Origin: a virus
Lineage: Duplodnaviria; Heunggongvirae; Uroviricota; Caudoviricetes
Direction: 5' to 3' (one strand)
DNA: 64,000 nucleotides
IMG/VR virus record: IMGVR_UViG_3300032334_002267
Location: 73,310 to 137,309 of that record
The notes under the pieces are model-generated. The model saw only the letters and a list, made by a program, of their open reading frames with translations, ran no database searches and was not told where the DNA came from. This document shows positions 6,888-58,212 of the stretch, one piece after another. The number at the start of each line of letters is the position of its first letter. Position 1 is the stretch's first letter. A program made the translations under genes and the position numbers.

Positions 6888-6984
6888 AGTCAGGTGGGCG
6901 TAATGAGGGGATGGTTCCCGAATCCAGTTAAATGGTTGCTTAATCCGTCTTGAACGGTACTCGGTTCGAATCCGACCCTGACTA
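6888..6984 (+). tRNA. tRNA-like gene, 97 nt
   Basis: Acceptor AGTCAGG/CCTGACT; T-arm TCGG-TTCGAAT-CCGA. Confidence 0.4.
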
Positions 6985-9404: not shown

Positions 9405-9438
9405 AAAACCCCAGATATTATCTGGGGTTTTTTTTATT
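9405..9438. terminator. bidirectional hairpin terminator
   Basis: AAAACCCCAGAT-ATTA-TCTGGGGTTTTTTTT. Confidence 0.6.
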
Positions 9439-10372: not shown

Positions 10373-10389
10373 GTTTTGAGTTTTAAATT

Positions 10390-11340: not shown

Positions 11341-11361
11341 CAGTTTAGTGATTTTAGTGTT

Positions 11362-12912: not shown

Positions 12913-13078
12913 TTTTTTATTTTTTGTTTGTTTTATATATCGTTGTTTTTAGAATTAAAAATTAAGATGTTTCTGAGGAAAGTCTTAATTTTATGCCCTA
13001 TATATCAAAAAAAATGGCCAATTTGTTTTTTTAACACGGGAATATTGATTAATTTTAGGATACAATGAAAAATGCGAG

Positions 13079-14218: not shown

Positions 14219-14221
14219 AAA

Positions 14222-14863: not shown

Positions 14864-14885
14864 AAAAAAAATAAAAAAATAGAAA

Positions 14886-15578
14886 ATGGAACACATAGAA
14901 GGTAAAAAGTGGAAATATTGGGATCGTGCTACAAATACCTATGGATATAAAACTTTTGATCATGTTAAAGAATTGGATTCCTGCTGGGAATATGATTTTT
15001 TCTACAAGGAGAATTATTATTTTAGTTATTCACCAAAAAATTGCTGTTACCAAATGTGGGACTGCGTGATCGAACCGGGATCGGTGGTTGTTGATTTGGG
15101 TGCAAACATAGGATTATTTACACATGGAGCTTCTAGAATTGCTAAGAAAGTTATCTCTATCGAAGGTAGTCCTGAACATTATTCTTGTCTGGTTGAAAAT
15201 AACTCGGACAGAGATAACGTTTATTTTTGTAACTCCATAGTCACCGGTGAAATCCCAGCGGATACCTATATTCCATCGGGAAGAGTATGGACAGACAGAA
15301 AAAATCCAATCGAGTTTACTATTAAAAAAATAATGGAGATTTATCAGCTAGAAAAAATAGATTTTTTAAAAATAGACATCGAGGGATTTGAGTATGATGT
15401 CTTTGATTCATTAAGTCCATCCATCCTTTCTAGGATTGATAAGATCGCGTGTGAAACACATGACCCCGATGATCGAAAAAAAAATCTACAGCTTCACGGG
15501 AAGATAAGGAGCACTTTCAGTGTCATAGATTTTTGTGGTAACGTGACTGATTTTTATTATTTTACAACGCCTAAATAG
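14886..15578 (+). CDS. FkbM-type methyltransferase-like protein
   Basis: VVVDLGANIGLFT motif. Confidence 0.45.
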   Translation: MEHIEGKKWKYWDRATNTYGYKTFDHVKELDSCWEYDFFYKENYYFSYSPKNCCYQMWDCVIEPGSVVVDLGANIGLFTHGASRIAKKVISIEGSPEHYSCLVENNSDRDNVYFCNSIVTGEIPADTYIPSGRVWTDRKNPIEFTIKKIMEIYQLEKIDFLKIDIEGFEYDVFDSLSPSILSRIDKIACETHDPDDRKKNLQLHGKIRSTFSVIDFCGNVTDFYYFTTPK

Positions 15579-15736
15579 AAATAAGATGCTAGAATACAAT
15601 GTTTCAGAAAGAAGATTTTTTATTTGGAAATTGGAATTGTGGTGGATCGCTTTTGATCAACCCCAATTTTATCCAGAGGGCAGAAAACATTTAAGAGGTA
15701 ATTGGTTCTGGAGAACCAAAAGAATAAAAGAATAAT

Positions 15737-16186
15737 ATGGAAAACGTAAGAAACGAAGGATACAGCACATTAAATCCAACACTATTTCTTGTGAGAGGAA
15801 TACCTGGATCTGGTAAATCAACTTTTGCAAAGCACATCTGGAATGAGTATGCAATCTGCGAGGCTGATAAGTTTTTTCACAACAAGGAAACTGGTGAATA
15901 CAACTTTGAAGCATCAAGGTTGAAAGAAGCTCACGAATGGTGCAGAAACGAAGTTGAGACCAGAATGAAAGATCACCAAGTTAATCCCCAGTATTACCCG
16001 GAGATCGTAGTGTCAAACACGTTCACTCAGGAATGGGAGATGCAGGCTTATTTAGACCTTGCTAAGAAATATCAATATCAGGTGGTTTCTCTGATCGTTG
16101 AAAACCGTCATGGAAACAACAATGTACACAACGTTCCAGCAGAGACTCTAGAAAAAATGAGACAGAGGTTCGAGGTTAAACTTTAA
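15737..16186 (+). CDS. P-loop polynucleotide kinase-like protein (T4 Pnk kinase-domain-like)
   Basis: LVRGIPGSGKSTFAKH Walker A; 149 aa, kinase domain only. Confidence 0.6.
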   Translation: MENVRNEGYSTLNPTLFLVRGIPGSGKSTFAKHIWNEYAICEADKFFHNKETGEYNFEASRLKEAHEWCRNEVETRMKDHQVNPQYYPEIVVSNTFTQEWEMQAYLDLAKKYQYQVVSLIVENRHGNNNVHNVPAETLEKMRQRFEVKL

Positions 16187-16190
16187 ATCG

Positions 16191-16568
16191 GTGAGAATCA
16201 ACATTGAGATAGAAAAGGATCTGTATAAACACTACGGACTAACCGAGAGTGAGGTTTCGCATATTCTCGAGCTGCTATCAAAAGAGGTTGAAAGGTTGAT
16301 TGTGCATCTTTATTGCAAATACGCTTTCGAGCACAGAACAGAAAAAAATCTAAAACTCATGCTTGATTATGTTAACGAAACTCTTCTCACAGGGGTTAAT
16401 AAAGCCGAGGTGATTTTTAATAAAAAGATCAAAAGCAACCTACTTCAGGTGGGAACTATACTGGGTTCGATGGATATAAAACACCAGAAAGAAAAATACC
16501 GACTCGTGGACTATCTCTTTCACCTAACCGTGATCAAATCACAAAAAGCATTCATAATAATAAAATGA
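16191..16568 (+). CDS. hypothetical protein (GTG start)
   Basis: 125-aa ORF. Confidence 0.35.
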   Translation: MRINIEIEKDLYKHYGLTESEVSHILELLSKEVERLIVHLYCKYAFEHRTEKNLKLMLDYVNETLLTGVNKAEVIFNKKIKSNLLQVGTILGSMDIKHQKEKYRLVDYLFHLTVIKSQKAFIIIK

Positions 16569-16969
16569 CACAATATAATCTTTTTTTAGACGATTTTAGA
16601 TACCCGGCGGATTGCCAGAGGTACATGTTAGACGGAGCAATGTATACAAACTGGGAATGGACGATTGCAAGAAGCTATGACGAATTCGTAGAAATTATTA
16701 ATGCTCAAGGACTTCCTGAGTTTATTTCTTTCGATCATGATCTTGCAGACGAACACTACTCACAGGACATGTACAAGGGGATGGAGGAGTATAATAAAAA
16801 CTACGAGTCTTTTAAAGAGAAGACAGGTTTAGATTGTGCAAAATGGTTAGTTGATTATTGTACGGATAAAGGGATAAAACTTCCTAAATATAGAGTTCAT
16901 TCGATGAATCCAGCAGGAGGAAGAAACATTTCAGAATATCTACAATCATACGAAAAATTCTCAAGTTAA
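16565..16969 (+). CDS. hypothetical protein
   Basis: 134-aa ORF with a 4-nt overlap. Confidence 0.4.
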   Translation: MTQYNLFLDDFRYPADCQRYMLDGAMYTNWEWTIARSYDEFVEIINAQGLPEFISFDHDLADEHYSQDMYKGMEEYNKNYESFKEKTGLDCAKWLVDYCTDKGIKLPKYRVHSMNPAGGRNISEYLQSYEKFSS

Positions 16970-16970
16970 A

Positions 16971-17375
16971 ATGGATAAGGTTAGAAAAATTCCAAGAGAG
17001 ATTAAAAAAGAAGATCTTCCCTCGTATAAGAAAAACGGTTATCTAACAGTAGGCGAGTTAAAGAAATCTATCCTAGATATGCCGGATGAAGGCCTAGTTC
17101 TTATCCAGAGAATCGAGGACACTTATTTTGAAAATAATGGATGGGGAGTCGTACTGAAAGAGGGAGAACATTATCACTGGGGATTGCAGTTTAATGAGGA
17201 TATAAAATCAGGAAAGTATGATAATTTAGAAGAATATCCCAATATGAAAAAAGACAACTTAAAGCTTTTTACGGAGGATGAACTTAATCAAGCTAAAGAC
17301 CAATATCATCCTGCATGGTGCGCAGTAAAGTACAAAGATGACACTGAAAATTTATATTTAGACCTTCACTATTAA
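16971..17375 (+). CDS. hypothetical protein
   Basis: 134-aa ORF. Confidence 0.4.
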   Translation: MDKVRKIPREIKKEDLPSYKKNGYLTVGELKKSILDMPDEGLVLIQRIEDTYFENNGWGVVLKEGEHYHWGLQFNEDIKSGKYDNLEEYPNMKKDNLKLFTEDELNQAKDQYHPAWCAVKYKDDTENLYLDLHY

Positions 17376-17387
17376 ATCCAAATTAAA

Positions 17388-17654
17388 ATGAGTTTTACCG
17401 AAAAGTTTTTCTTAGTAATGGGATGTATGATTCTTGCTGATATCTGCTGGGCCTACTATTTCATTAAAATCGAAGAGAGAAAATCAATAGCTTCAGGAAT
17501 CTGGGCTTCTCTGATTTATATCTTTGGAGCTTTCACCGTTACCTCTTACGTCGAGGATAAAAGACTAATAGCAGCTGCAATTATAGGATCATTTATAGGA
17601 ACTTCTGCAACCGTTGAGTATAAAAAAAGAAGAGAGAAAAAAAATGCAAAATAA
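17388..17654 (+). CDS. small membrane protein
   Basis: Two hydrophobic helices. Confidence 0.4.
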   Translation: MSFTEKFFLVMGCMILADICWAYYFIKIEERKSIASGIWASLIYIFGAFTVTSYVEDKRLIAAAIIGSFIGTSATVEYKKRREKKNAK

Positions 17655-17883
17655 AAAGATCCTATTTTATGTCGGGATAAACCCGGAAGACCAAATAAAG
17701 CTAAAAGACTTTATTGGAAATTTTATGGAGGATGATGTGGATGAAAAATTCCATATAAACATCGTTAATGAATTCGATGATCCTGACGGCTACTACACAT
17801 ATTTACTAGAGGGATCTTGGTATTCCTATAAATGTTTTATCGGAAGAGATTTCGTAAAATCTTTGAACCATTACGAAGAATAA
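17644..17883 (+). CDS. hypothetical small acidic protein
   Basis: ATG at 17644 (MQNKKILFYV) preferred over the upstream alternative start. Confidence 0.35.
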   Translation: MQNKKILFYVGINPEDQIKLKDFIGNFMEDDVDEKFHINIVNEFDDPDGYYTYLLEGSWYSYKCFIGRDFVKSLNHYEE

Positions 17884-17920
17884 AAATCAAACTCACTTAT
17901 ACTACTTAAACCGATCAAAA

Positions 17921-18970
17921 ATGAAATTCGACTTCGACGATATCCTAATTCAGCCTGCTCCAATTTCTAGAATTCATTCAAGAAAACAAGTGGATGTTTT
18001 TTATGAATATGGTAGATTGCCTCTTTTTACCGCTCCAATGGACACCGTTGTTAGCGGAGAGAATAAAGATCTATTTCTCAAAGCTGGTATCAATGTTATA
18101 ATGCCAAGAACGGAATCTTTAGAAAGTATAGACAACACATTTCCAGATTTTTTTAGATCTTTAGGCATGGATCAATTTGAAGATCTTTTTATTAACAACA
18201 AAAGAGATGGATATCATCATATTCTGATAGACATCGCTAATGGACATATGCAAAGACTTCTAGATATAACTAGAAGAGCTAAGGAGATGTACGGAAGTCA
18301 TCTAGTTCTTATGGTGGGCAACGTTGCACATCCTGAAACATACAGAGCATTTTCTGTGGCTGGTGCAGATTACATCAGGGTTGGTATAGGAAACGGCGGA
18401 GGGTGTTTAACAACAGTACAAACAGGTGTTGGTTATCCGATGGCTTCATTGATTAATGAGTGCTATGATGTGAGTCTGGCTTTAGAAACCCCTGCTAAGA
18501 TCGTGGCAGATGGGGGATTCAAAAGCTACTCTGATATCATTAAAGCTCTTGCTCTTGGAGCTGACTATGTTATGCTTGGTTCCATTCTAAACAAAGCTCT
18601 AGAGAGCGCAGGGGAAACATATCTAGCTAATAATAAAAAAGAAGGCTGGACAGAACCTGGGGATAGGATTAATCAATACTCGCAAGAAACTGAAAAACTC
18701 TTCTCATACGGAACCCGTATGTTTAAGAAATTTAGAGGAATGAGCACCAAGGAAGCTCAGAGAGCTATGGGAAAAGAGATTCTAAAAACAAGTGAGGGGG
18801 TAACTAGAATGCAGCCTGTTGAGTATACTTTGAATGGATGGGTCGATAACTTCAAAAGTTATCTTAGCTCTGCTATGAGCTACAGTGACGCAATGAATCT
18901 AAACGAATTTATCGGATATGCAAAATGGAATATGATAACAACCAATTCGTTAAATAGATTTAAAAAGTAA
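17921..18970 (+). CDS. guaC: GMP reductase (IMPDH/GMPR family)
   Basis: IRVGIGNGGGCLTTVQTGVGYPMASLINEC matches the GuaC catalytic Cys loop; 349 aa. Confidence 0.75.
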   Translation: MKFDFDDILIQPAPISRIHSRKQVDVFYEYGRLPLFTAPMDTVVSGENKDLFLKAGINVIMPRTESLESIDNTFPDFFRSLGMDQFEDLFINNKRDGYHHILIDIANGHMQRLLDITRRAKEMYGSHLVLMVGNVAHPETYRAFSVAGADYIRVGIGNGGGCLTTVQTGVGYPMASLINECYDVSLALETPAKIVADGGFKSYSDIIKALALGADYVMLGSILNKALESAGETYLANNKKEGWTEPGDRINQYSQETEKLFSYGTRMFKKFRGMSTKEAQRAMGKEILKTSEGVTRMQPVEYTLNGWVDNFKSYLSSAMSYSDAMNLNEFIGYAKWNMITTNSLNRFKK

Positions 18971-18975
18971 ATAAT

Positions 18976-19521
18976 ATGGCACACCAGCAACAGAAAAATT
19001 TTTATAAAGGGATTAAAGATAAACATCCTAGATTTTTTAGCGATGTTAAAGTCCTTGATGTCGGATCACTAGATATCAACGGATCAACCAAAGATCTCTT
19101 TGAGCATCCTTTCTATTACATCGGAATAGATCTTGCTGCGGGGAAAAACGTAGACGTTATTTGTCCAGGACACCTGTACGATTCAGGATTTCTCTTTGAC
19201 GTGGTGACATCTTCAGAATGTTTTGAACATGACATGTATTACGTAAGGACTATAAACAATATGGTAAGACTACTAAGATCTGGGGGTCTTATGGCTTTTA
19301 CCTGCGCAACAGAGGGTAGACACGAGCACGGAACTTTAAGAACTAGTCCAGAGGATGCTCCATTTTTATTAAGCATAGATGAGAAGTGGGCTAATTACTA
19401 TAAGAATTTAACTGAGGATGACATTAGATCAGCAATTGATATTAATAATACATTTTCAGAATTCGGATTCGAGATAGGCGAAGAAACTAGAGATCTATAT
19501 TTCTGGGGCATAAAAAAATAG
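18976..19521 (+). CDS. putative SAM-dependent methyltransferase-like protein
   Basis: VLDVGSLDINGS motif, weak. Confidence 0.35.
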   Translation: MAHQQQKNFYKGIKDKHPRFFSDVKVLDVGSLDINGSTKDLFEHPFYYIGIDLAAGKNVDVICPGHLYDSGFLFDVVTSSECFEHDMYYVRTINNMVRLLRSGGLMAFTCATEGRHEHGTLRTSPEDAPFLLSIDEKWANYYKNLTEDDIRSAIDINNTFSEFGFEIGEETRDLYFWGIKK

Positions 19522-19526
19522 TTACA

Positions 19527-20951
19527 ATGAAGATTGATGTTATATGTTTAACCAAAACTGATGATGTCCGTTATTTTGACATGTGTTCAAAAACAATATC
19601 GACTCTATTTGAATCTCAGCCTCAAACTGAATTCAATTTAGTTTTAGTTGAATCGTCAAATTCACCAAGGTGGGAATACTCAGAGATTAAAGCGGGAAAT
19701 GTTAATAATTCGATAAAATACATAACCCCTAATGAGAAGTTTGCGTATAATAGATTTCTTAATATAGGAATGACACACACCGAAAATTCAGACTGGTTAT
19801 TAATCATAAATAACGATCTTATATTCGAAACAGGGTGGTTTGATAGAATATTGGAGGCTTCTAGATCTAGACCCGATATAGATTCTTTCAGTCCATTTGA
19901 ACCAGATTTCCATAATAAATATTATACAGGATGGGCTAGTTCAGAGATTAATGAAAGTTATGAAGTTGGATTTGGTGTTTGTGGATGGTGTATTCTGATG
20001 AAAAAATCTGTTATTGATAGAATAGGTAAATGGGACGAAAGATTTTTACACTGGTATCAGGATAATGATTATGCAGAGAATCTTAAACATCACGGGATTA
20101 AACATGCTCTCATAAAATCTTCAATCGTTCACCACCTAACTGAAAGCAGTAAAGATCTTTTGGATGATGAATTAGGGATGACTCTAGGTATGAAAAAAGT
20201 TTTCGATGATAAATGGATGAATAAAAAGAAACCTAGGATAAAGATTTGTCATCTGTTACTGGATCCAAGTCAGCCACAGGATATCCCTTCTGATAAATGG
20301 GATTCTGTTATGGCTAAACAGAAAGCTTCGGTTTCTGCATTCGAAAAAATAGCAAGTAACTTTGCTTGCTACTCCCAGAGGTATTCCGTTGTTAATAGAA
20401 CGGAATTACCATCAGAGAATTGTGCACAGCCAGAAATAATAGATCGATCCAAAGATTTTATTAACAATCCTCCTGTGCTTTCATATGGGCATTATGGTGC
20501 TTACGTTGCTCACAGATCAGCTGTAGAGGATTTTGGAAATTATGATGCACTGATTATTGTTGAAAGCGACGTTGTATATGATCTAAGGCCAGAAGAATTT
20601 ACCAAGAAGATATACGATGCTTATGAATTCGGGTTAGCTAGATCTGGAGCTATGTTTACATTCGGAGCTGTTAGCTACGGCATGGCATCGAGAGCTTCGG
20701 TTAGTGACACTGCAATCTATATGGGTGATTACAAACAGATAGACCATTTTCTCTGTGCTCACTGTTATATGGTCTTTAAATCAGAAAAAGAAAACATTCA
20801 GAATAAATTAGCTAATACCGGATGGCATGCATGGGATATTTGGCTTTATTGGAATTACGATATGAGAGTTCCTATATTTGCTACAACAGCACCTCTTGTA
20901 CATGAGCCGGATGGATATTCCGTTATAGATTACCAGAAAAAAATTACCTAA
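19527..20951 (+). CDS. hypothetical protein, possible glycosyltransferase
   Basis: 474 aa; NNDLIFETGW DxD-like motif, weak. Confidence 0.35.
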   Translation: MKIDVICLTKTDDVRYFDMCSKTISTLFESQPQTEFNLVLVESSNSPRWEYSEIKAGNVNNSIKYITPNEKFAYNRFLNIGMTHTENSDWLLIINNDLIFETGWFDRILEASRSRPDIDSFSPFEPDFHNKYYTGWASSEINESYEVGFGVCGWCILMKKSVIDRIGKWDERFLHWYQDNDYAENLKHHGIKHALIKSSIVHHLTESSKDLLDDELGMTLGMKKVFDDKWMNKKKPRIKICHLLLDPSQPQDIPSDKWDSVMAKQKASVSAFEKIASNFACYSQRYSVVNRTELPSENCAQPEIIDRSKDFINNPPVLSYGHYGAYVAHRSAVEDFGNYDALIIVESDVVYDLRPEEFTKKIYDAYEFGLARSGAMFTFGAVSYGMASRASVSDTAIYMGDYKQIDHFLCAHCYMVFKSEKENIQNKLANTGWHAWDIWLYWNYDMRVPIFATTAPLVHEPDGYSVIDYQKKIT

Positions 20952-21529
20952 TTCTTATCTTTTCTGTTAGCCTTAGCTCTCTTATAAAGAGCTTTATCTC
21001 CCATCTTTGTTGTTTTACCTCCCGTTAAAAAAGAGTTAACCCTAGCCATAGCCCACTGCTGAGGGGTAGTTCCGGGAATATGACCAACTTTCCAAGCTGC
21101 GTACCCCCTACCCCAAACTTGTCTTAGAATCCCTAGAGGAAATCCTGTTTTATCCGATTTCTTTTTAAGAGCTTTATAAACGGGACTGTTCTTACCCATC
21201 TTAGACGCTTCTTCTAGCACGTCTGCTGTGATACTCTCGTCTTCCAAGACAATCTCTTCAAAAACGTTTTGAGGCTCGCTATAGTCATTAAAACTCACTA
21301 TATTGTCGATCTCGAAGTCCTCTGACTCACCAAACATCTCCTTGTATTTTTTAGTGTATTTGCTGGTCTTAGTTGGGACTGGTTTGCCCTTGCCTGCTTT
21401 GCCGCTTTTATAGTCGGCATCCCATGGTCCATATGCTGAAGAATCATCATCAGCCTTGTGCCCATGTTTTTTGATCTCCCTCTTCATTATATTGGGATTG
21501 GTTGTCAGGTATTTTTTAGGGTATTTCAT
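20948..21529 (-). CDS. hypothetical basic protein
   Basis: 193-aa K-rich ORF. Confidence 0.4.
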   Translation of the reverse strand: MKYPKKYLTTNPNIMKREIKKHGHKADDDSSAYGPWDADYKSGKAGKGKPVPTKTSKYTKKYKEMFGESEDFEIDNIVSFNDYSEPQNVFEEIVLEDESITADVLEEASKMGKNSPVYKALKKKSDKTGFPLGILRQVWGRGYAAWKVGHIPGTTPQQWAMARVNSFLTGGKTTKMGDKALYKRAKANRKDKN

Positions 21530-21604
21530 GATTATCTATATATTCACGAGGAACTGGATAAAAATATTTTTTTTATTTCCGAAAGAATTCCATACCTTTG
21601 GGCT

Positions 21605-22063
21605 ATGAAAAATAACGAAAACAAGAGCGTTTGTTCATCCTGTCAAGGAAAATGCTGTAAGGCATTCCCAGGAATAGTCTCTCCTGAGGATCTAAAAGAA
21701 ATAACGGTTGAATCTTTATCTGAGATGTTCAAGAACGGATACCAGTTTGATTACTGGGAAGGTAATCTAACAGGTAACCCAGAACACGATGATCTTACTT
21801 TCTATTATCTAAGACCGCAGACTAAGAAATCTGTTGGCAGAATAGTAGATGCCTCTTGGGGAGGTGAATGCGTTTTTTTGACCGAATCGGGATGCTCAAA
21901 AGAATTTGATCAGAGACCTGCTCAGTGTAAAGCTCTTAAACCGTCCGAGGATCTAAAGTGCTATTTCCCGGATAAAAAGTACGACAAAGAATCCATGATT
22001 AAATCATGGATTCCCTATAATGAAATAATAGTAAAAACTATCGATAAAATATACGGAGAATAA
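21605..22063 (+). CDS. CxxCxxCC putative Zn/Fe-chelating domain protein (YkgJ-like)
   Basis: CSSCQGKCCKAFPG; ATG at 21605. Confidence 0.5.
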   Translation: MKNNENKSVCSSCQGKCCKAFPGIVSPEDLKEITVESLSEMFKNGYQFDYWEGNLTGNPEHDDLTFYYLRPQTKKSVGRIVDASWGGECVFLTESGCSKEFDQRPAQCKALKPSEDLKCYFPDKKYDKESMIKSWIPYNEIIVKTIDKIYGE

Positions 22064-22093
22064 GTATCTAATAAATTAAAAAATTAAAATATA

Positions 22094-23188
22094 ATGGAAA
22101 GAAAATTAGCTTCGATACAGAGAATTGGAAAAATTCTTCCTATCGGGGGAGCGGACGCAATAGAAATAGTAACCGTGAATTCATGGAAGGTTGTCTCAAA
22201 GAAAGGGGAGTTTAACGAAGGAGACCTTTGTGTCTATTTCGAGATAGATTCTTTCTTACCTGTGAGGGAAGAGTTTGAATTTCTAAGAAAATCTTCGTTT
22301 AAAAAAATGGGAGATAAAGAGGGATTTAGATTAAAGACAATAAAACTCCGAGGACAAATCTCTCAGGGACTTTGTCTTCCTCTTTCAGTTTTAAACAGTA
22401 AAGAGTTTGAAGAAATGGTAGTAGGGATTTCAGAGCAGCCTTGGGGAAATCAGTTACAATTAGGTCCTTATGATGATGCAATGATTATAGAGGAGGGGAT
22501 GGATCTTACTGACTATCTTGGGATATTAAAATATGAACCTCCGATCCCAGCTTCATTAGCAGGAAAGGTAAAAGGCTATTTCCCAGGATTTATCAGAAAG
22601 ACCGACGAGGAGAGAATCCAGAACATGACTAAAGAATTCGATAGCATGCGTGATAAGCACTATTACGTAACAGAAAAACTTGACGGAAGCTCTGCAACAT
22701 ATTATTTTAATAATGGTGTGTTTGGAGTTTGTTCAAGAAATTTAGAGCTATTAGAAACAGAGGAAAATACGTTTTGGAAAGTTGCCAGAGAACTTTTCAT
22801 CGAAGAGAAATTGGGAACTCTTGAAGGTAACTACGCGATTCAGGGAGAACTCATCGGCGAAGGGATACAGGGAAATCCATATAAGATTAAAGGTCAAACG
22901 GTTAAAATATTCAACATGTTCAACATAGACACCCGGGAGTATTTGGGACTTGATGATATGATTAGAATACTAGAAAAGATAAATGTTGACGATAAGCCAT
23001 TAGAGCTCGTTCCGGTGATTTATTACGATTATAAACTTCCTTCGACCATAGAGGAGGTTTTAATTCAAGCAGAGGGTAAATCTAGGTTGAACGAACAGAC
23101 AGAAAGAGAAGGATTGGTTATTAGGAATAAAGATAAATCAATATCTTTTAAAGCCATTTCTAATAACTTTTTACTTAAAGCAGGATAA
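22094..23188 (+). CDS. second ATP-dependent RNA/DNA ligase-family protein (KxDG) with a roughly 190-aa N-terminal extension
   Basis: Motif I VTEKLDGSSATYYF. Confidence 0.6.
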   Translation: MERKLASIQRIGKILPIGGADAIEIVTVNSWKVVSKKGEFNEGDLCVYFEIDSFLPVREEFEFLRKSSFKKMGDKEGFRLKTIKLRGQISQGLCLPLSVLNSKEFEEMVVGISEQPWGNQLQLGPYDDAMIIEEGMDLTDYLGILKYEPPIPASLAGKVKGYFPGFIRKTDEERIQNMTKEFDSMRDKHYYVTEKLDGSSATYYFNNGVFGVCSRNLELLETEENTFWKVARELFIEEKLGTLEGNYAIQGELIGEGIQGNPYKIKGQTVKIFNMFNIDTREYLGLDDMIRILEKINVDDKPLELVPVIYYDYKLPSTIEEVLIQAEGKSRLNEQTEREGLVIRNKDKSISFKAISNNFLLKAG

Positions 23189-35747: not shown

Positions 35748-36548
35748 TTAATTACCTCCCAAAAATTTAGAAGCGCTATCAGAAGTTACTGTGCTGTAAC
35801 CAAGAGATTTTGCCAGTCCACCTAATATCTTTCCTGCTATTGTTGCCGGAGGTTCTTTACCTGCAACAGCTTCACCAGGAGTTTCATATTGTGGTTTAAT
35901 AACAGGTTCCGTTTCCATATAAGGAGCAACAGTTCCTAGAGCTTTAGAGATATCGGAATCAAATTCCGGTGTTCTTCTTCCTTTAAAATAATCTATAAAT
36001 CCTAATAGGTTTGTCTGAGAAAAACTTCTTTTATTGACACCAACTCTATCTCCTTCTCCTGATTTCTGATCGTTGGTATTTCCCTCAATTGAAGTAAATG
36101 TTTTTGAAGATGGATCTACAGAAACAACTATTCCGGTGTGTCCTTTATCTCCTCCGCCTCTTTTCATCATAAATACCATTCCGGGTTTAATTTGGTTCAT
36201 GTCCTTCCTTGCATCTGCTATGTTGATCTTTAAACTAGGATCTGCAGATTTCCAGTGGGTTAGACAATGTCCGGTTTTAATCAGGGTGTTTGGAACCCCA
36301 AGTCTTTTAGAAAGTTCATCGAACATAGCATAAACGTAGGCTGCACACCATTGTTCTCCAGGACCTAGTCCTACACTTTTTAGATAGCTGTTAACTTCTG
36401 GTCCTGAATTAGATCCAACTGGAGATTCTTTAACATCCTTGGTGTTTGCAAGAATCTCAGCAAAACGATCACCTGCCGTGGATGGATCAGCTATTGCCAT
36501 TGAAACCTCGTCCAATCTAAAATCTAAAAAACTCTTAATTTTTGTCAT
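35748..36548 (-). CDS. CHAP/NlpC-P60-like peptidoglycan peptidase with N-terminal motif
   Basis: Cys box EQWCAAYVYAMF, His box GHTGIVVSVD. Confidence 0.6.
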   Translation of the reverse strand: MTKIKSFLDFRLDEVSMAIADPSTAGDRFAEILANTKDVKESPVGSNSGPEVNSYLKSVGLGPGEQWCAAYVYAMFDELSKRLGVPNTLIKTGHCLTHWKSADPSLKINIADARKDMNQIKPGMVFMMKRGGGDKGHTGIVVSVDPSSKTFTSIEGNTNDQKSGEGDRVGVNKRSFSQTNLLGFIDYFKGRRTPEFDSDISKALGTVAPYMETEPVIKPQYETPGEAVAGKEPPATIAGKILGGLAKSLGYSTVTSDSASKFLGGN

Positions 36549-36621
36549 CTTATGTGTTTTATGATATATTTATCCCTAAATATTTTTTTATTTCGGAATC
36601 TTTCTATATATTTGCATCTGT

Positions 36622-37005
36622 ATGAGATTAAATGGCAAATGGATCAAAGAGGAGGAAATATATGTAAACCGATATGGGGATTGTCTTAAATTCACAAGGA
36701 TTTCCGAACTGGAGTTCATTATGAGTGGAGGTCAGCTCAGCCAATTTGTGAAGATTTCAAGAGATCCTGCAGGAAATTTGCTCCTCATAGACCCTCCAGG
36801 AGGTCCAATGATAATGGCAACACCCGCTATGATTTGGAAGGGGGAGGGCGAAATTTATACGAAAAACATGTCTAATAATATGGGTGAATTTTCACCACAA
36901 TGGAAAGACCTTATAATAGTAGAGCTTGAATGGACAACAGAGGTTAAAATTAAATGTTTACCTATCTGGGCATTCGAAGAAATGAAATGGGAAAAAATAA
37001 AATAG
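36622..37005 (+). CDS. hypothetical protein
   Basis: 127-aa ORF. Confidence 0.4.
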   Translation: MRLNGKWIKEEEIYVNRYGDCLKFTRISELEFIMSGGQLSQFVKISRDPAGNLLLIDPPGGPMIMATPAMIWKGEGEIYTKNMSNNMGEFSPQWKDLIIVELEWTTEVKIKCLPIWAFEEMKWEKIK

Positions 37006-37009
37006 CAAT

Positions 37010-37687
37010 ATGAATTATCGATCAGAATTTGAAAAGTACGCCAGAAGTGAATACGGGATTTCTTCTTCCCGAATCAACTATTTCGAAAAAAAGATAGAGT
37101 CTTCAATGACTCCTTACATCCTAGAAGAAAGAGAAATGAGAGTAACCCAAATGGACATCTTTTCTCGATTAATGCGTGACCGCATTCTATGGGTAGCGGG
37201 TGAGGTTGATGATAGCATGTCAACAGTTGTCCAAGCACAGTTAATGTTTTTAGACTCTGTTGATGATAGAGATATCACCATGCACATAGACTCTCCAGGG
37301 GGTTCAGTAAAATCAGGTTTATCTATGGTTGATGTAATGGAATACATTTCTGCAGACATCAGAACAGTTAACACCGGAATGGCAGCTTCAATGGGATCAG
37401 TTTTACTTGGAGCAGGTACTAAAGGAAAGCGTAGCTCACTTAGATTCAGCAAGGTGATGTTACACCAATCAAGTGGAGGATTCAGGGGGAACATTCAAGA
37501 CGCTAAAATTGACATGAAAGAATGGGAAGAGGTTAACAAAATTCTTTTCGATCTTCTAGGAGGTTACTGTGGAAAGAAGCCAGAGCAGGTCATGAAGGAC
37601 GCAACAAGAGATTTTTGGCTGAGTGCTGATGAAGCGGTTAAATACGGAATCATCGATGAGGTGGTTCTTAAGAAGAAGAAAAAATAA
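37010..37687 (+). CDS. clpP: ATP-dependent Clp protease proteolytic subunit
   Basis: GMAASMGS (Ser), MLHQ (His), SPGGSV. Confidence 0.85.
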   Translation: MNYRSEFEKYARSEYGISSSRINYFEKKIESSMTPYILEEREMRVTQMDIFSRLMRDRILWVAGEVDDSMSTVVQAQLMFLDSVDDRDITMHIDSPGGSVKSGLSMVDVMEYISADIRTVNTGMAASMGSVLLGAGTKGKRSSLRFSKVMLHQSSGGFRGNIQDAKIDMKEWEEVNKILFDLLGGYCGKKPEQVMKDATRDFWLSADEAVKYGIIDEVVLKKKKK

Positions 37688-37693
37688 TTCAGA

Positions 37694-38116
37694 ATGAATC
37701 CGATAAAAAACAGAAAAGCTAATTTTGATTACAGCTTTATAGAGGAATTTAACGCAGGTATATGCCTCTATGGATCTGAAGTTAAGGCCATCAGAGAATC
37801 AAGGGTTTCTCTGGTGGATGCTTTTTGCTTTATACAAGATGGCGAGGTGTGGCTAAAAGGCATGCACATCTCAGCAGATTCTAAGGACTGGAACCACGAT
37901 CCACTTCGAAATAAAAAACTCTTACTAAAAAAGAAAGAGATTTCAAAACTTCAAAAGGGTTTAGATAAAGGGGTCACTATAGTTCCAACCCTAATTTTTT
38001 TATCAGATAGGAATTTAATAAAGGTAAAGATTTCTCTAGCTAAAGGAAGAAAGGAATATGACAAAAGAGAAAGGATTAGATCAAGAGAGATCGAAAGAGA
38101 AATTAAAAACATTTAG
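37694..38116 (+). CDS. smpB: SsrA-binding protein SmpB
   Basis: Aligns along its length with E. coli SmpB (F..EEFNAG..L.GSEVK..R....L.D....I.DGE..L.G..I..Y...HD..R.RKLLL...E). Confidence 0.9.
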   Translation: MNPIKNRKANFDYSFIEEFNAGICLYGSEVKAIRESRVSLVDAFCFIQDGEVWLKGMHISADSKDWNHDPLRNKKLLLKKKEISKLQKGLDKGVTIVPTLIFLSDRNLIKVKISLAKGRKEYDKRERIRSREIEREIKNI

Positions 38117-38118
38117 TT

Positions 38119-38874
38119 ATGGATAATATATTAGAGGCAATATACCCATTCTGCCAAGAAGCTAGGAATAAAGGAAACGCTACGGAAAACGGTAGGGTGC
38201 CAACCCCTAGGGTTATTTTTATTCTATCAATGCTAGAAAAATTTGGAATAAAAAAGATCATTGACGCTTTTAGTTTTTCAGGAAAAAACAACTTCTATAA
38301 TGTAATTCTACCCGGGACTTCCAAGTATATCATCACAGCTCACCATGATATAGTGAATCCGGATTCTGACAATGCAAATGACAATTCAGCTTCTGTTATA
38401 AATGCAATTTATCTTAAGTCACTGGTGCCAGAGGCAACCGTTGTTTTAACTGACGGAGAGGAGGTTGGGCTCATAGGGGCAACTAGGTTAGCAGAGCAGA
38501 TCAACCAAGGGGTTTATGGAAAAATAGAAGGGGTTATAAATTTGGAGCTATCTGGGATGGGCGGTGAAAATTTTATAATAGGAGACAACCCTGGAAATCT
38601 GAATGATAAAATATTGGAGATGTTTAACCCCACGGTGGTCAAGACACCTGTTAGCGACACGACTGCTTTTAGAATGGCAGGAATAGATAGCACGGTACTA
38701 AACCCGTTACCTCTTTTAACTGAGGGTGTTTCTTTTATATCTAATCAGAGAGGGTTCTTAGATAATAGATCTTGGTCAAGGTGCCACACCGACGAGGACT
38801 CTGTTGATCTCATCTCTTTAGACGATATGGAAGCTTTTGTCACTAAAATTTTAATACCCATAGTTAGGTCATGA
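38119..38874 (+). CDS. M28-family zinc peptidase-like protein
   Basis: AHHDIV, DNSASV, TDGEEVGLIGA, CHTDED. Confidence 0.55.
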   Translation: MDNILEAIYPFCQEARNKGNATENGRVPTPRVIFILSMLEKFGIKKIIDAFSFSGKNNFYNVILPGTSKYIITAHHDIVNPDSDNANDNSASVINAIYLKSLVPEATVVLTDGEEVGLIGATRLAEQINQGVYGKIEGVINLELSGMGGENFIIGDNPGNLNDKILEMFNPTVVKTPVSDTTAFRMAGIDSTVLNPLPLLTEGVSFISNQRGFLDNRSWSRCHTDEDSVDLISLDDMEAFVTKILIPIVRS

Positions 38875-39185
38875 TTTGGTATTTAGATGCCGTAATGAGA
38901 GCTATAGCTATCGTTATTCTTATTTTTGGAGTGAGTTTGGTTATATACGTAAAAGCAAGAGAAGTAATTTACAAAAATCTAAGCATGAACTACCTTGTTA
39001 TAAAAAAAGAGAAGATGCAGGAATTAACCGGTAAATACGGTAGTTCTATAGTGGGTAAGTGTTTTGAGCTTGCCTCAAAAGAACATCCAGGTATTGTGTA
39101 TGATAATCTACCGGAAAATGAAAAGGAGCTAAGAGGATGCTTCCGCGATCTTTTCAACGATCTGATAGAAGACGATAATTTTTAA
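38871..39185 (+). CDS. hypothetical membrane-anchored protein
   Basis: N-terminal TM helix. Confidence 0.4.
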   Translation: MIWYLDAVMRAIAIVILIFGVSLVIYVKAREVIYKNLSMNYLVIKKEKMQELTGKYGSSIVGKCFELASKEHPGIVYDNLPENEKELRGCFRDLFNDLIEDDNF

Positions 39186-39300
39186 TTCAATATAGACGAA
39201 TCTATTCGAAACAAAAAGTATAGTAAGTCTATAATATCAGTAACCCTACGAAGGATTTGTTACACAATAGCAGCTTTCATAGGTGTTTGTTTTGGTTCAA

Positions 39301-39330
39301 CCCGGGATCTTTCTAGATTCCGGGTTTTTT
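39301..39330 (+). terminator. rho-independent terminator
   Basis: CCCGGGATCT-TTCT-AGATTCCGGG-T6. Confidence 0.65.
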
Positions 39331-39990
39331 GTTGCAATTGTCAAAATGGAATCTTTTAAGATTCCCCATATTTTTACTGGACTTATTACAGTGAGGACAG
39401 CTAGATTCTTCTCTGTTTTTCCAAGATTCCTTTAATCTTTCCCTGGTCTCAGGACTGTGGGATTTCCCATAAAAAGAATTTTTATCGCCCTTCCTAGATT
39501 CTGACATCTTTAATTTTACAGTATCCGAAAGTACTAATCCCTTAGCAGATTTAGAAATGTTCATTCTATGGGATTCCGTAAATTTAATTCCTAGGAGTCC
39601 TAAAGAAATATTTACTTTATGGGATTCGCTTTTTGGTTTCCTCATTTTCTTTTTAGTTGATTCACTTTTACTAACCCCCTTAAATTTTTCGGATATATCA
39701 CTTCTCATTTCTGAATATAATCTAGATCCGCATTTATATTTACTGTCCGAATTGCACATTAACCAGAAAGCGAAAGAAAGACCTATGCTATTAGGATAAA
39801 CCCTAAATAAAAGTAAATGCGCTATAAAATGTTCTCTGGCTGTTAGTAATATTAAATTGCCTTCTGAATTATCCCCTCCCATGCAAAGAGGATTTATATG
39901 ATGAAGCTCGTAATAGACACCAGATCCTTTCTTTCTATTGAGATTAGACCTAGTTTCTATTAATCTATCGTAGTGTCTTTGGTAATCCAT
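39313..39990 (-). CDS. HNH homing endonuclease with NUMOD3 repeats
   Basis: ELHHINPLCMGGDNSEGNLILLTAREHFIAHL, plus four GxSKSEETRxKM-type NUMOD3 repeats. Confidence 0.8.
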   Translation of the reverse strand: MDYQRHYDRLIETRSNLNRKKGSGVYYELHHINPLCMGGDNSEGNLILLTAREHFIAHLLLFRVYPNSIGLSFAFWLMCNSDSKYKCGSRLYSEMRSDISEKFKGVSKSESTKKKMRKPKSESHKVNISLGLLGIKFTESHRMNISKSAKGLVLSDTVKLKMSESRKGDKNSFYGKSHSPETRERLKESWKNREESSCPHCNKSSKNMGNLKRFHFDNCNKKPGI

Positions 39991-49945: not shown

Positions 49946-50047
49946 CGGTCAGGACAGGATTCGAACCTGTATCTTGCCTTTCTGTATCGTCCCACTACTG
50001 GGTTGATTGGGGGGTCGAACCCCATGTTGCCATTACACCACCTGACC
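49946..50047 (-). tRNA. tRNA-like gene, about 102 nt, same acceptor family (GGTCAGG/CCTGACC); possible Ser(CGA) with a very long variable region
   Basis: Reverse complement gives GGTCAGG-TG-GTGT-AATGGCA-ACAT-GGGG-TTCGACC-CCCC-[38 nt]-ACAGG-TTCGAAT-CCTGT-CCTGACC. Confidence 0.45.
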
Positions 50048-53328: not shown

Positions 53329-54762
53329 TTAATTTAATGAGTAATTTCTTATAGCTAATTTATTAACCTTTAACCCTTTAACTAACTCTCCGTCTTGCTT
53401 GTAAATAACGATGTCATATTTATTTGAGGTGTTAAGCTCGTATTTAAAAACTGTCATTGGTTTCCCATCTTCACTTACTGGGCTGCAACATCCATTTAAA
53501 CATTTTTTATTTCTAGGATCGCCGTGATTAGCACCAAAGAAAGACATTATACCAATAAATGATACATCCTTAGGATCGAACTGAGTACCGTCAGTGTGAT
53601 TGATATAAACCTCATAAACTCCCATAGGAAGTTCATCGAAAGTGGTTGAGATCTCTAATAAAGTTTTAGAGTTGTTATAATTGGCTGGACTCGTTAAAGT
53701 ACCAACGTGTGTTGATTTTCCTTTTATTAGAGTGTTTGGAGTTGAAGAAGCAAGAATTTCTCTAGGTCCTATTTTAGCATCAGGAGCATTTGTGTTAAGA
53801 TAAACCTTAGTGTCATCATAATCATAGTCCATGTTATAAACAACAGCCATAACCTCCTCTGGAGTGTAGACTACAGATTTACCATTCTCGTCGAAGAATT
53901 GATATTTCCAAGGATTATCCTTTAACTGCTGTAAAGTTATTTTCTGACCATACGGAGAATTCAGCCACTTTTGAAAAACTCTATCAATGTTTGAATGATG
54001 AGTCCAAAAGATAGGATCGAATCCTGCTGTAGGAACTTGAGCCATTAAACCAGTTAGAGAATTTTTCTGCATGATTCTATTATAGTAGATGTCATGAATG
54101 TGGTTACCCATACCGATGTAGTTATGCATGGTTCCATGTATTCCTCTATCAAAGTTCGAATTGAATGTTTGATAATCTGTGATCTGCATTAGTTTAGGAT
54201 AATCCCCGTCAATGGCTCTACGTGCTGATCCCTCTATAGGTTTACCGCTATTTAATGATTTAACTCTGGCTTCTTCATACAGTGAGCTACTAGTGTCTCT
54301 CCATTCGGTTGGCATGATCTTATCTGGGTTATTATAGTTTGTGTAACCCCAGTAAGGCAAAGCAAAATCTTTTTTACCTGATGTTTTTCTAACTATCTTT
54401 TCGAAGTGCCAGATATACATTCTGTGCCAGATCAGGAAGTTTATTTCTTCTGCCCCGCTATTTGAGTGCGTGCACTCATCCCAAGCCATTTTTAATTCTG
54501 TCCAATCTGCATATGATTCACACAGCTTATTGGAATCAATTTGTTGAGGAACCCAGTGGATTGCTGCTTGGTAATACCAGCTTGTAGGATCGTTACAGTC
54601 TTTTGACTTCATAATCTCCATAGCCTTGTTCATTGCCTCAACGTCTGCCTGAGCATCGGAGGTGTTTGCGTTTTTCCTCACATATCTAGAACCCGATTTA
54701 TCGTTGCAAGAAGCAACAAGTAGAACAGACAGGATACTGAGAACACTTAATACTTTTCTCAT
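53329..54762 (-). CDS. tyrosinase/polyphenol-oxidase-family copper protein, lipoprotein
   Basis: CuA FLIWHRMYIWHFE and CuB FDPIFWTHHSNIDR signatures; lipobox LLVASC; start probably at MRKVL. Confidence 0.75.
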   Translation of the reverse strand: MRKVLSVLSILSVLLVASCNDKSGSRYVRKNANTSDAQADVEAMNKAMEIMKSKDCNDPTSWYYQAAIHWVPQQIDSNKLCESYADWTELKMAWDECTHSNSGAEEINFLIWHRMYIWHFEKIVRKTSGKKDFALPYWGYTNYNNPDKIMPTEWRDTSSSLYEEARVKSLNSGKPIEGSARRAIDGDYPKLMQITDYQTFNSNFDRGIHGTMHNYIGMGNHIHDIYYNRIMQKNSLTGLMAQVPTAGFDPIFWTHHSNIDRVFQKWLNSPYGQKITLQQLKDNPWKYQFFDENGKSVVYTPEEVMAVVYNMDYDYDDTKVYLNTNAPDAKIGPREILASSTPNTLIKGKSTHVGTLTSPANYNNSKTLLEISTTFDELPMGVYEVYINHTDGTQFDPKDVSFIGIMSFFGANHGDPRNKKCLNGCCSPVSEDGKPMTVFKYELNTSNKYDIVIYKQDGELVKGLKVNKLAIRNYSLN

Positions 54763-54852
54763 TTTAATTGTTTTTTTAGTGTACATTAATTTATTATAGA
54801 GCAAAACAATTCAGGGGTTTCAGAGGATTCTTAGATAACACACACAAAAAAA

Positions 54853-56894: not shown

Positions 56895-58196
56895 TTAAAA
56901 CCCAAGGTCAAGCAAATCCGAAGTGGCTCCGTCTGGATCTACTTTGTCTTTAATCTTATTCCAAATATCAGGCATATTGTCTTTGATTAATCCGTAGATC
57001 TCAAACTTCTCATCTGGTGGAAGAGATTTAGATAGAAGGTAATCAGACATATCTTTAGCACCTTTAGCCCCTAGCATTGACAGAAGCATTGTTTTTAATC
57101 TGGGTTTGTCAACTGGTTTATCTTTATCATACTCAAGATCTTCAATTTCTTTTAACTTGCTCATGACAGTTTTGATAAATTCAGCACCGCCCTTTTTATT
57201 CCATCCCTGCTTCCAATCCAATATGAAGAACCCACGCTCGGAATTCCAATTTTTAATAAAGAAATTTCCAACACTTTCTGGTGCTTCTGCAAGTGAGACG
57301 AGAGGATTATCCGCACATTGAAAAGAACCCTCCACCACCTCTGGAGCTCCTTCTAGGGTTTTAAGAGAATTGTACCCGCAATTAAAAATTCCTTTTATTC
57401 TCTTGGGTGCTCCCTCAAGCGAGGTAAGGGCATTTTGTGCACAATTGAAATATCCACCAACTTCCTGAGGTGCTTCCTTAAGCGAGGTAAGGGCATTTTG
57501 TGCACAATTGAAATCCCCGCCAACCTTTCGGGGTGCTCCCTCTAGAGATTTGAGTCCAGCACTCTGGATATTAAAATAACCACTCACCTCTCCAAACTTA
57601 ATCCCCCTAAATCCGAGTTTGTTTTCAGCGATTGATGAAAAATTTCCAGAGATATCAATCTCCCCTGTGGTTTCGTTGAACTCCCACTCTCCCTTTGTTG
57701 ATTTATTCATCCAGTTAACCACTGATGGAGTGAGTCCGTGTCTTTTGTATAATTCACCCATGGGATCAGTAATCCCAGTTCTGCTTACAACACCCTCTCT
57801 AACCTTTGGCAGATCCAATAACACATCGATCATCTCAGGATTGGCCTTCATGAAGTCGTCTAGGTCTTTAACGGGAATTAAAGAAATGCCTTTTTTGGCG
57901 AATCTTTTAATCACGTAGTAGAGTAGGCTTGACATTATCTTTGGTCCAGAGGTCATTGAAGATTGATACACGTAACCCTGATCTGACGTTCTCACATAGC
58001 CACCCGCAGTGAGTCTGTGAACAACTTTAGAATATGAGGACCCGATTGAAACAGTGCCTTTGCTGTTTGTTCCTAGAATTTCAAATCCCATTAGTTGTAG
58101 GAGTTTCCACTCAGGCAGATCCTGCCAGTTGCCAGCCCAATCCTCGGATGTGATGGCCTTGGATTCGAATAAGGAGAAAGGTAGAAGATTTTTCAT
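56895..58196 (-). CDS. LRR-repeat paralog-family protein (ends ...SDLLDLGF)
   Basis: Start at MKNLLPFSLFES. Confidence 0.6.
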   Translation of the reverse strand: MKNLLPFSLFESKAITSEDWAGNWQDLPEWKLLQLMGFEILGTNSKGTVSIGSSYSKVVHRLTAGGYVRTSDQGYVYQSSMTSGPKIMSSLLYYVIKRFAKKGISLIPVKDLDDFMKANPEMIDVLLDLPKVREGVVSRTGITDPMGELYKRHGLTPSVVNWMNKSTKGEWEFNETTGEIDISGNFSSIAENKLGFRGIKFGEVSGYFNIQSAGLKSLEGAPRKVGGDFNCAQNALTSLKEAPQEVGGYFNCAQNALTSLEGAPKRIKGIFNCGYNSLKTLEGAPEVVEGSFQCADNPLVSLAEAPESVGNFFIKNWNSERGFFILDWKQGWNKKGGAEFIKTVMSKLKEIEDLEYDKDKPVDKPRLKTMLLSMLGAKGAKDMSDYLLSKSLPPDEKFEIYGLIKDNMPDIWNKIKDKVDPDGATSDLLDLGF

Positions 58197-58200
58197 ATTG

Positions 58201-58212
58201 CTATATATCGCA
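58201..58212 (-). promoter_or_regulatory. TGCGATATATAG box between the stop and start of tandem paralogs
   Basis: Same 12-mer at 55958-55969 and 56883-56894; variants at 59405-59415, 47963-47974, 44506-44515 (-), 44547-44556 (+), 53246-53258 and 60497-60509. Confidence 0.5.

Follow-up and report, generated by a model that had tools for sequence, protein, structure and literature searches.

A 64,000-nucleotide (nt) stretch of the viral record IMGVR_UViG_3300032334_002267, referred to below as the window (the whole stretch of DNA that was analysed), encodes a ClpP protease subunit, the ribosome-rescue factor SmpB, and an M28-family peptidase in three adjacent genes. These genes most likely belong to a working trans-translation and proteolysis module that uses either the transfer-messenger RNA (tmRNA) of the host or a phage tmRNA located outside the region read. 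In the specific form that is tentatively favored here, the gene block 36622–39185 would be a phage module for ribosome rescue and protein clean-up, with host tmRNA as the partner of SmpB. SmpB and ClpP are the canonical pairing of a rescue factor and a tag-directed protease. An earlier note on this DNA had named the three genes and proposed that they act together in ribosome rescue or in the turnover of tagged proteins; the gene identities and the SmpB–ClpP link stood, whereas the novelty implied for a phage SmpB did not (see section Relation to Known Systems).

Organization of the Gene Block

Five co-directional open reading frames (ORFs) lie head to tail on the plus strand and span 36622–39185 in the ORF map: a conserved ORF of 127 amino acids (aa), the genes for ClpP, SmpB, and the M28 peptidase, and a conserved 104-aa ORF (Table 1). 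The three named ORFs are found exactly where the earlier note had placed them, all on the plus strand, and a Pfam match supports the identity of each. The gaps of 2–6 nt suggest that the genes of the block are co-transcribed. The divergently transcribed gene for a CHAP lysin starts 73 nt from the 5′ end of the block, and the promoter candidate in this gap agrees with the sigma-70 consensus at 10 of 12 positions, as a consensus match only, Bacteroidota promoters being outside the model of the tool. A TAnnTTTG motif is present at 36607, ahead of the first ATG of the block. As a marker of the host, this Bacteroidota −7 motif was rejected because it is not enriched in the window (66 occurrences vs. 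about 70 in shuffled sequences). At the 3′ end, the terminator-like hairpin overlaps the 3′ end of a minus-strand homing-endonuclease ORF (39313–39990), and its assignment as a terminator is tentative.

Ratios of nonsynonymous to synonymous substitution rates (dN/dS) were calculated with reference to a relative whose SmpB is 93% identical, at a proportion of synonymous differences (pS) of 0.64–0.71, where synonymous sites are near saturation. The ratios are 0.021 for ClpP, 0.030 for SmpB, and 0.043 for M28, and 0.23 and 0.14 for the 127-aa and 104-aa ORFs, respectively. Because values of 0.021–0.043 are obtained at near-saturated synonymous sites, ClpP, SmpB, and M28 all appear to be kept as working proteins by strong purifying selection. 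None of the five proteins of the block has a defence-system match in PADLOC.

SmpB

The SmpB protein matches PF01668 in Pfam (E = 1e-48) and scores 164.4 and 165.5 bits with the NCBIfam equivalogs TIGR00086 and NF003843, above the respective cut-offs of 119.1 and 130, covering profile positions 3–141 of 144 and 14–151 of 156. It aligns over its full length with solved SmpBs, including the C-terminal tail, to residue 138. The tail residues Asp123, Lys124, and Arg125 are invariant across 19 aligned phage and cellular SmpBs, and all residues that are invariant between cellular and phage SmpBs, this Asp-Lys-Arg among them, are present in the window SmpB. In addition, Ile133 occupies the hydrophobic position of the tail. 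The SmpB tail, in which Asp-Lys-Arg precedes a basic helix that includes a hydrophobic position, is reportedly needed for tagging in Escherichia coli. We take D123-K124-R125 to correspond to E. coli D137-K138-R139, which is needed for tagging, and Ile133 presumably sits at the position of E. coli Trp147. With the equivalog cut-offs passed and both D123-K124-R125 and Ile133 kept, a misassigned paralog is ruled out, and the original call of SmpB is correct.

Shared derived features (the absence of an N-terminal extension and a 2-residue deletion) mark the SmpBs of the phage clade as a long-standing phage lineage and not one captured recently.

ClpP

The ClpP protein matches PF00574 (E = 3e-57; 193.8 bits; profile positions 5–180 of 182). 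Cellular ClpP models of NCBIfam score it at 177–244 bits; the best of these, NF011091, gives 243.8 bits, below its equivalog cut-off of 361, and no ClpP equivalog cut-off is reached. The N-terminal extension of the protein is covered by the NCBIfam ClpP model PRK14514 (profile positions 2–221 of 221). Comparison with solved ClpPs yields about 164 bits, and Ser127, His152, and Asp201 align with the catalytic triad. The sequence is that of a divergent, cellular-type ClpP, no equivalog of any curated bacterial subfamily, and the identification as ClpP holds, the protein being of cellular type with an intact Ser-His-Asp triad.

A head-maturation (prohead) protease was considered and rejected: NF045542 gives only 68.8 bits vs. 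a cut-off of 120, and the surrounding genes encode CHAP and SLT lysins, SmpB, and M28, neither a portal nor a capsid gene being nearby. The ClpP-related head-maturation proteases of phages belong to the same S14 fold family, and the PHROG matches of the window ClpP bear that label. Unlike these proteases, however, the window ClpP matches cellular models better and does so over its full length, including the N-terminal region. The sole AAA+ protein among the window ORFs scanned is MoxR-like (11362–12912).

Linkage of ClpP and SmpB in Related Phages

Many metagenome contigs (JGI, ENA, and Logan) of up to 332,679 bp carry the same SmpB or one with 93% identity, and the ClpP–SmpB–M28 order is unchanged in every contig of these lineages. 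The trio is also kept where SmpB is 64% identical (L019 and L020; related contigs and loci are designated by such numbers). In the window lineages and in L049, L062, L071, and L073–L075, ClpP immediately precedes SmpB on the same strand, and the ClpP-linked SmpBs form one clade in a neighbor-joining tree of SmpB (window/L001, L019, L049, and L062/L073/L075). This gene order is held across lineages whose SmpBs are about 50–64% identical and whose synonymous sites are saturated.

The ClpP–SmpB order recurs in L066/L067, which is distant in the tree and in which a tmRNA with an Rfam score of 57 bits and a G3:U70 acceptor stem comes after SmpB. As in the window, ClpP is directly upstream of SmpB and on the same strand in this locus (IMGVR_UViG_3300014204_000168 and a near-duplicate; the L067 contig is 248 kb). 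It differs from the window in that the tmRNA follows SmpB at the place of the M28 gene, and in that its SmpB, which belongs to a distant clade, is only 46% identical. The functional link between SmpB and ClpP that had been proposed for the window is thus backed by synteny in one whole clade, plus a distant clade with a tmRNA. In the megaphage LR745206, a ClpP stretch is 70% identical and has no SmpB within 15 kb, and most phage SmpB loci are without ClpP. The recurrent linkage of ClpP to phage SmpB, conserved and previously unremarked, is the newer element of this analysis and is modestly novel.

M28 Peptidase and Flanking ORFs

The M28 protein matches PF04389 (E = 3e-10; 40.4 bits vs. a gathering score of 21.3; profile positions 14–185 of 193), and matches no NCBIfam or PHROG family. 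In weak alignments with SGAP (1cp7; E = 0.1) and YwaD (6hc6), His75, Asp88, Glu114-Glu115, and Glu143 are at presumed metal-ligand or catalytic positions, with Glu143 standing in place of Asp; His223 was assigned by eye from a CHTDED motif. The co-catalytic zinc ligands of the M28 family are His, Asp, Glu, Asp/Glu, and His, to which a catalytic Glu is added. The N-terminus (MDNILEAIYPFCQE...), judged by eye, is unlike a signal peptide. The presence of M28 after SmpB is conserved in L001–L015 and L019/L020 only.

The 127-aa ORF that opens the block matches no Pfam or PHROG family, and weak homologs of it precede ClpP–SmpB in L049, L062, L071, and L073–L075. An SspB/ClpS-like adaptor was tried as its identity and rejected (no family match, two homologs by word search, and an AlphaFold model with a predicted local distance difference test score (pLDDT) of 51). 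The 104-aa ORF that closes the block has a hydrophobic N-terminal segment, is conserved in L001–L015 and L019/L020, and likewise matches no Pfam or PHROG family.

Search for a tmRNA

The search for a tmRNA spanned about 81 kb, comprising the 64-kb window and flanks of 7 kb on the upstream side (L021) and 10 kb on the downstream side (L104, L105), both taken from near-identical contigs. This span amounts to about 24% of the related contig of 332,679 bp (a genome of 333 kb or more). On the window, ARAGORN reports one tRNA-like gene and no tmRNA, and Rfam gives no standard or permuted tmRNA family (RF00023 and the permuted families), either at the gathering score or at E ≤ 10. Neither tool finds a tmRNA in the 7-kb upstream or 10-kb downstream flank, and the cluster of tRNA-like genes at 6.2–7.1 kb of the window holds none. 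The earlier observation that no tmRNA is present in the window is therefore borne out, and the Infernal- and ARAGORN-type search that had been suggested is negative across the whole span.

As positive controls, ARAGORN and Rfam find phage tmRNAs directly beside SmpB in IMG/VR loci (Table 1), with Rfam scores of 84.5 bits (L059), 85.8 bits (L098), and 57.1 bits (L066/L067). The negative result for the window carries weight because the same tools detect phage tmRNAs at 57–86 bits in related loci. Apart from the positive loci, the two tools find no tmRNA in the 20-kb loci of close and distant relatives, and none is located within 10 kb of SmpB in any lineage of the ClpP–SmpB clade, even at an Rfam E ≤ 5. 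Of the 80 IMG/VR loci retrieved by SmpB alignment, just 4 (three lineages) have a tmRNA at 10 kb or less from SmpB, and ARAGORN finds none within 20 kb of the SmpB match in Lak-B1, LR756501, and LR756504. SmpB without a neighboring tmRNA is the rule among phage loci. An exact-pattern scan for tmRNA ends was rejected, as the invariant positions common to the six phage tmRNAs are too few.

In our reading of the alignment, the tags of three phage tmRNAs have 21–26 residues, start with GN or AN, and end in VVVA (L059), AVAA (L066), and KVAA (L098). These ends (VAA, VAA, and VVA) are predicted to be Clp-type C-terminal degrons. The tag called by ARAGORN for L066 is in a frame other than that of the alignment and is probably wrong. 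GOLLD RNAs (298–305 bits) are located within 1–2 kb of SmpB and the tmRNA in two jumbo-phage contigs, L059 (8446–8871) and L098 (7377–7785).

Relation to Known Systems

Huge phages carry tmRNAs and SmpB, and a role in ribosome rescue during infection has been proposed for them (Al-Shayeb et al., 2020; PMC7162821). SsrA-binding proteins are annotated in at least 8 of the 200 deposited genomes of that study that were searched (Al-Shayeb et al., 2020), and one annotated SmpB of 140 aa in a published circular genome has the same short N-terminus and tail motif as the window SmpB. In tblastn searches, SmpB is found in Lak megaphages and in LR756501–LR756504, at 45–50% identity to the window SmpB, and at least 379 contig stretches in IMG/VR encode SmpB relatives. 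The megaphage Mar_Mega_1 has one tmRNA. The novelty that the earlier note implied for a phage SmpB is not borne out, as SmpB is published in huge phages and annotated in at least eight genomes, and orphan SmpB is common; with phage SmpB already known, the window is a solid, fairly ordinary case. In a literature search, no paper was found to connect phage SmpB with ClpP or with an M28 peptidase.

Like that of the window, the SmpBs of huge phages and Lak phages are phage-encoded and belong to very large phages, many with predicted Bacteroidota hosts. However, SmpB has other neighbors in Lak-B1, LR756501, LR756504, and the circular genome, whereas that of the window sits between ClpP and M28; a protein scan of the Lak-B1 SmpB locus for ClpP and M28 matched SmpB only. 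With bacterial trans-translation involving ClpXP, the window proteins have in common the conserved core and tail of SmpB and the ClpP triad. Unlike in the bacterial system, the window genes are phage-borne, and no ssrA, ClpX, ClpA, or SspB was found in the region read. In bacteria, smpB and clpP are not known to be operon partners.

Phage Identity and Host

The assignment of this DNA to a phage is supported by relatives of the window in IMG/VR, by a related contig of 332,679 bp, and by phage-like gene content, including a T4 Rnl1-like ligase, a second phage-type RNA ligase, a T4 MobE-like homing endonuclease, and the CHAP and SLT lysins. Hallmark genes give no such support: neither the window nor the 7 kb upstream has a recognisable capsid, portal, or terminase gene. 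The L019/L020 lineage (64% SmpB identity) carries a protein with a type IX secretion sorting domain (Por_Secre_tail), and the nearest named cellular SmpBs are those of Bacteroidia. A jumbo phage of Bacteroidota is a reasonable reading of these features and the probable source of the window.

tRNA-Leu-Like Scaffold RNAs and Associated Elements

The window contains five oversized tRNA-like genes (Table 1) with a near-identical acceptor stem (AGUCAGG/CCUGACU, followed by A73) and a T arm (ACAGGUUCGAAUCCUGU), and with a D arm that we take to resemble that of tRNA-Leu. In each copy of this scaffold, the anticodon and variable arms are replaced by unrelated inserts of 40–65 nt. A pattern scan detected the scaffold in at least 120 IMG/VR viral contig stretches (121 distinct sequences) and, among 185,579 species genomes, in only four short contigs of metagenome-assembled genomes; the family is phage-specific and nearly lacking in cellular genomes. 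Where the pattern leaves a scaffold position free, conservation is mostly 84–99%; it is lower for D-arm positions (0.71–0.96) and is lost in the 3′ part of the D arm. Clustering of the 121 distinct inserts gives 96 groups. ARAGORN accepts 37 of the 121 sequences as tRNAs, with scattered anticodons, and the copies usually form arrays next to ordinary phage tRNA genes. Normal D arms, the absence of G3:U70, and inconsistent anticodons in ARAGORN intron models led to rejection of these genes as tmRNA-like or intron-bearing tRNAs. A literature search returned no description of the family. Presumably comparable are the unexplained stable RNAs C and D of the T4 tRNA cluster, which the scaffold RNAs recall. 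The family is stranger than the SmpB finding, and nothing ties scaffold RNAs to SmpB.

The spacer between copies 3 and 4 (6793–6887) is 98% identical in L130 and L197, in which the neighboring protein genes are 72–87% identical, and is probably also part of a functional RNA. One scaffold copy taken together with its upstream spacer shows the same 98% identity, against 72–87% for the flanking genes. A conserved non-coding element of about 225 nt (6486–6709) lies between copies 2 and 3. Homologs occur in L093/L094 (E = 1e-22) and L207 (73% identical), with a weak one in L016, and in every case tRNA or tRNA-like genes flank them. According to RNAalifold, 11 base pairs show compensatory changes in an alignment of four sequences, and there is no Rfam match to the element. 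In L016, a 358-kb contig of a distant relative, about six oversized tRNA-like genes with differing acceptor stems are located at 12637–13885 (Rfam and inspection by eye), in a 1.5-kb gene-free stretch 2.2 kb downstream of SmpB. ARAGORN models some of these as tRNAs with anticodon-loop inserts of 16–52 nt.

Other Features of the Window

An island of RNA-repair-type genes (9434–23188; Table 1) is close to the cluster of tRNA-like genes. Just after the block, a NUMOD3 homing-endonuclease gene (39313–39990, minus strand) has DNA similarity to mobE of the T4 family. Because it is present in L011, L013, and L014 and absent from L009, L010, and L012, contigs that are otherwise identical, this gene is a currently mobile insertion. 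A protein of 491 aa with a tyrosinase central domain (53329–54804, minus strand; PF00264, E = 2e-29) is an unusual phage gene. Toward the end of the window (58000–64000), the G+C content climbs from about 0.36 to 0.44–0.52. Calculation from the coordinates puts the end of ENA scaffold_23, which is of the same strain, near window position 58,650, and approximately 2 kb (roughly 61.1–63.1 kb), with ORFs matching pterin-4a and DUF2452, are left uncalled by gene callers in related contigs. The segment 58000–64000 may be recently acquired or hard to assemble.

Table 1. Positions of the block genes, signals, and RNA features in the window, and of phage tmRNAs in other loci
Feature	Position	Strand	Remarks
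Conserved ORF opening the block	36622–37005	+	127 aa; 4 nt before ClpP ORF
ClpP gene	37010–37687	+	225 aa; 6 nt before SmpB ORF
SmpB gene	37694–38116	+	140 aa; 2 nt before M28 ORF
M28-family peptidase gene	38119–38874	+	251 aa; stop overlapped by start of next ORF (ATGA)
Conserved ORF closing the block	38871–39185	+	104 aa; start overlaps M28 stop
Sigma-70-like promoter candidate	36542–36570	+	TTGTCA-17-TATATT with TG; in 73-nt divergent gap upstream of block
Terminator-like hairpin	39299–39326	+	12-bp stem, then T run, 3′ of block; consensus match only
Scaffold copy 1	6187–6279	+	
Scaffold copy 2	6379–6492	+	
Scaffold copy 3	6711–6817	+	
Scaffold copy 4	6888–6985	+	
Scaffold copy 5	49946–50047	−	
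DUF2201 and DUF2201_N proteins with MoxR-like AAA+ ATPase	9434–12912	−	RNA-repair island
T4 Rnl1-like ligase	13079–14218		RNA-repair island
AAA_33 kinase	15737–16186		RNA-repair island
Cyclic-phosphate-processing receiver domain	16565–16969		RNA-repair island
Second RNA ligase, PHA02142 OB fold	22094–23188		RNA-repair island
Phage tmRNA, L059	10903–11297	−	Adjoins SmpB
Phage tmRNA, L066	10696–11064		Adjoins SmpB
Phage tmRNA, L098	8956–9359		Adjoins SmpB

Proposed Mechanism and Alternative Explanations

In the mechanism proposed, SmpB and alanyl-tmRNA would enter ribosomes stalled on broken or stop-less mRNAs, and such stalled ribosomes are expected to be common once the phage attacks host nucleic acids. 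Host (Bacteroidota) tmRNA is the favored partner of SmpB because no phage tmRNA is in view. The ClpP proteolytic subunit would assemble with a host unfoldase (ClpX or ClpA/C) and degrade the tagged products, and the M28 peptidase, presumably cytoplasmic, would trim the peptides thus released, supplying amino acids to the protein synthesis of the phage. Certain phages (lambda-immP22, Mu, and P22) grow defectively on smpB and ssrA mutant strains of E. coli and Salmonella. We infer the use of host tmRNA, the pairing with host unfoldases, the recycling role of M28, and the co-transcription of the genes.

Several points weigh against this reading. No RNA partner for SmpB was found in the approximately 81 kb read, with three quarters of the genome outside. 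No ClpX, ClpA, or ClpC unfoldase is present among the window ORFs scanned, no gene for an SspB/ClpS-type adaptor was recognised in the window, and the 127-aa ORF is still unclassified after family and model searches. In the 19-sequence alignment, the phage-clade SmpBs have no N-terminal extension, have a 2-residue deletion, and have C-termini shorter than those of cellular Bacteroidota SmpBs; the window SmpB presumably ends about six residues before the C-terminus of E. coli SmpB. Because of the derived indels and the shorter C-terminus, the fit of phage-clade SmpB with host tmRNA is only presumed. The genes are also found apart: L016 and L017 have SmpB without an adjacent ClpP, L197 has a close ClpP without SmpB, and M28 follows SmpB in only part of the ClpP–SmpB clade. 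The evidence for the host consists of phylum-level hints only.

The same module might instead work with the phage's own tmRNA, encoded elsewhere in the genome of at least 333 kb, for example in a tRNA island, which would make it a routine carried system with its parts apart. This is a real but lesser possibility, ranked below the use of host tmRNA. It draws on the tmRNAs that adjoin phage SmpB in L059, L066/L067, and L098, on tmRNAs called by ARAGORN alone in the phage tRNA islands of L162, L183, and L220, and on the extent of the tmRNA search, which covers about 24% of the length of the related genome; tmRNA and SmpB are, moreover, both known from huge phages (Al-Shayeb et al., 2020; PMC7162821), and Mar_Mega_1 has one tmRNA. 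Set against it are the absence of a phage tmRNA from the approximately 81 kb, the tRNA-like cluster at 6.2–7.1 kb included, from within 10 kb of SmpB across the ClpP–SmpB-clade lineages (Rfam E ≤ 5), and from within 20 kb of SmpB in the three published megaphages. An absence of any shared pathway, with ClpP and M28 serving bulk host proteolysis, processing of phage proteins, or amino-acid scavenging and SmpB acting as an independent translation gene, is unlikely: the ClpP–SmpB order is kept at about 50–64% SmpB identity with saturated synonymous sites and recurs with a tmRNA in a distant clade, and gaps of 2–6 nt suggest co-transcription, even though ClpP occurs without SmpB in L197 and LR745206, SmpB occurs without ClpP in most phage loci, and M28 is present in only part of the clade.

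Two further alternatives assign SmpB a different activity. SmpB might be a weapon: by titrating or misdirecting the tmRNA of the host, or through competition with the host's own SmpB, it could alter which proteins are tagged or block a stress or abortive response of the host. The derived indels (no N-terminal extension, 2-residue deletion, and shorter C-terminus) could alter its function in this way, but all residues invariant between cellular and phage SmpBs are kept, including the Asp-Lys-Arg of the tail, which a dominant-negative protein would be expected to lose, and a dN/dS of 0.03 fits a conserved canonical activity; we therefore consider such a role very improbable. Least probable of all is that SmpB works with a phage-specific RNA instead of tmRNA, most plausibly a tRNA-Leu-like scaffold RNA or the RNA of about 225 nt. 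Scaffold RNAs are present in the window (6187–6985 and 49946–50047), oversized tRNA-like genes lie 2.2 kb downstream of SmpB in L016, and L093/L094 hold both SmpB and a homolog of the approximately 225-nt RNA. However, the scaffold RNAs have a normal D arm and lack G3:U70, unlike the tRNA-like domain of tmRNA, and have no conserved tag frame; they are 30 kb from SmpB in the window, and SmpB is absent from all 120 fetched scaffold-carrying IMG/VR stretches, within the stretch read. If true, such a partnership would represent SmpB-dependent ribosome targeting of a new kind, confined to phages.

Implications

The immediate gain is small, as the idea of phage-assisted ribosome rescue has been published before and no culture of the phage exists. 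The block offers testable reagents, namely phage SmpB paired with host tmRNA and phage ClpP paired with host ClpX. The recurrent ClpP–SmpB linkage is genomic support for the coupling of rescue to proteolysis in phages, and one lineage adds, after SmpB, a tmRNA with a Clp-type tag end. If the module works as proposed, some giant phages would bring more than tRNAs and translation factors to infection: they would ensure that stalled ribosomes are rescued, and that aborted products are disposed of and recycled, while host mRNAs are being destroyed.

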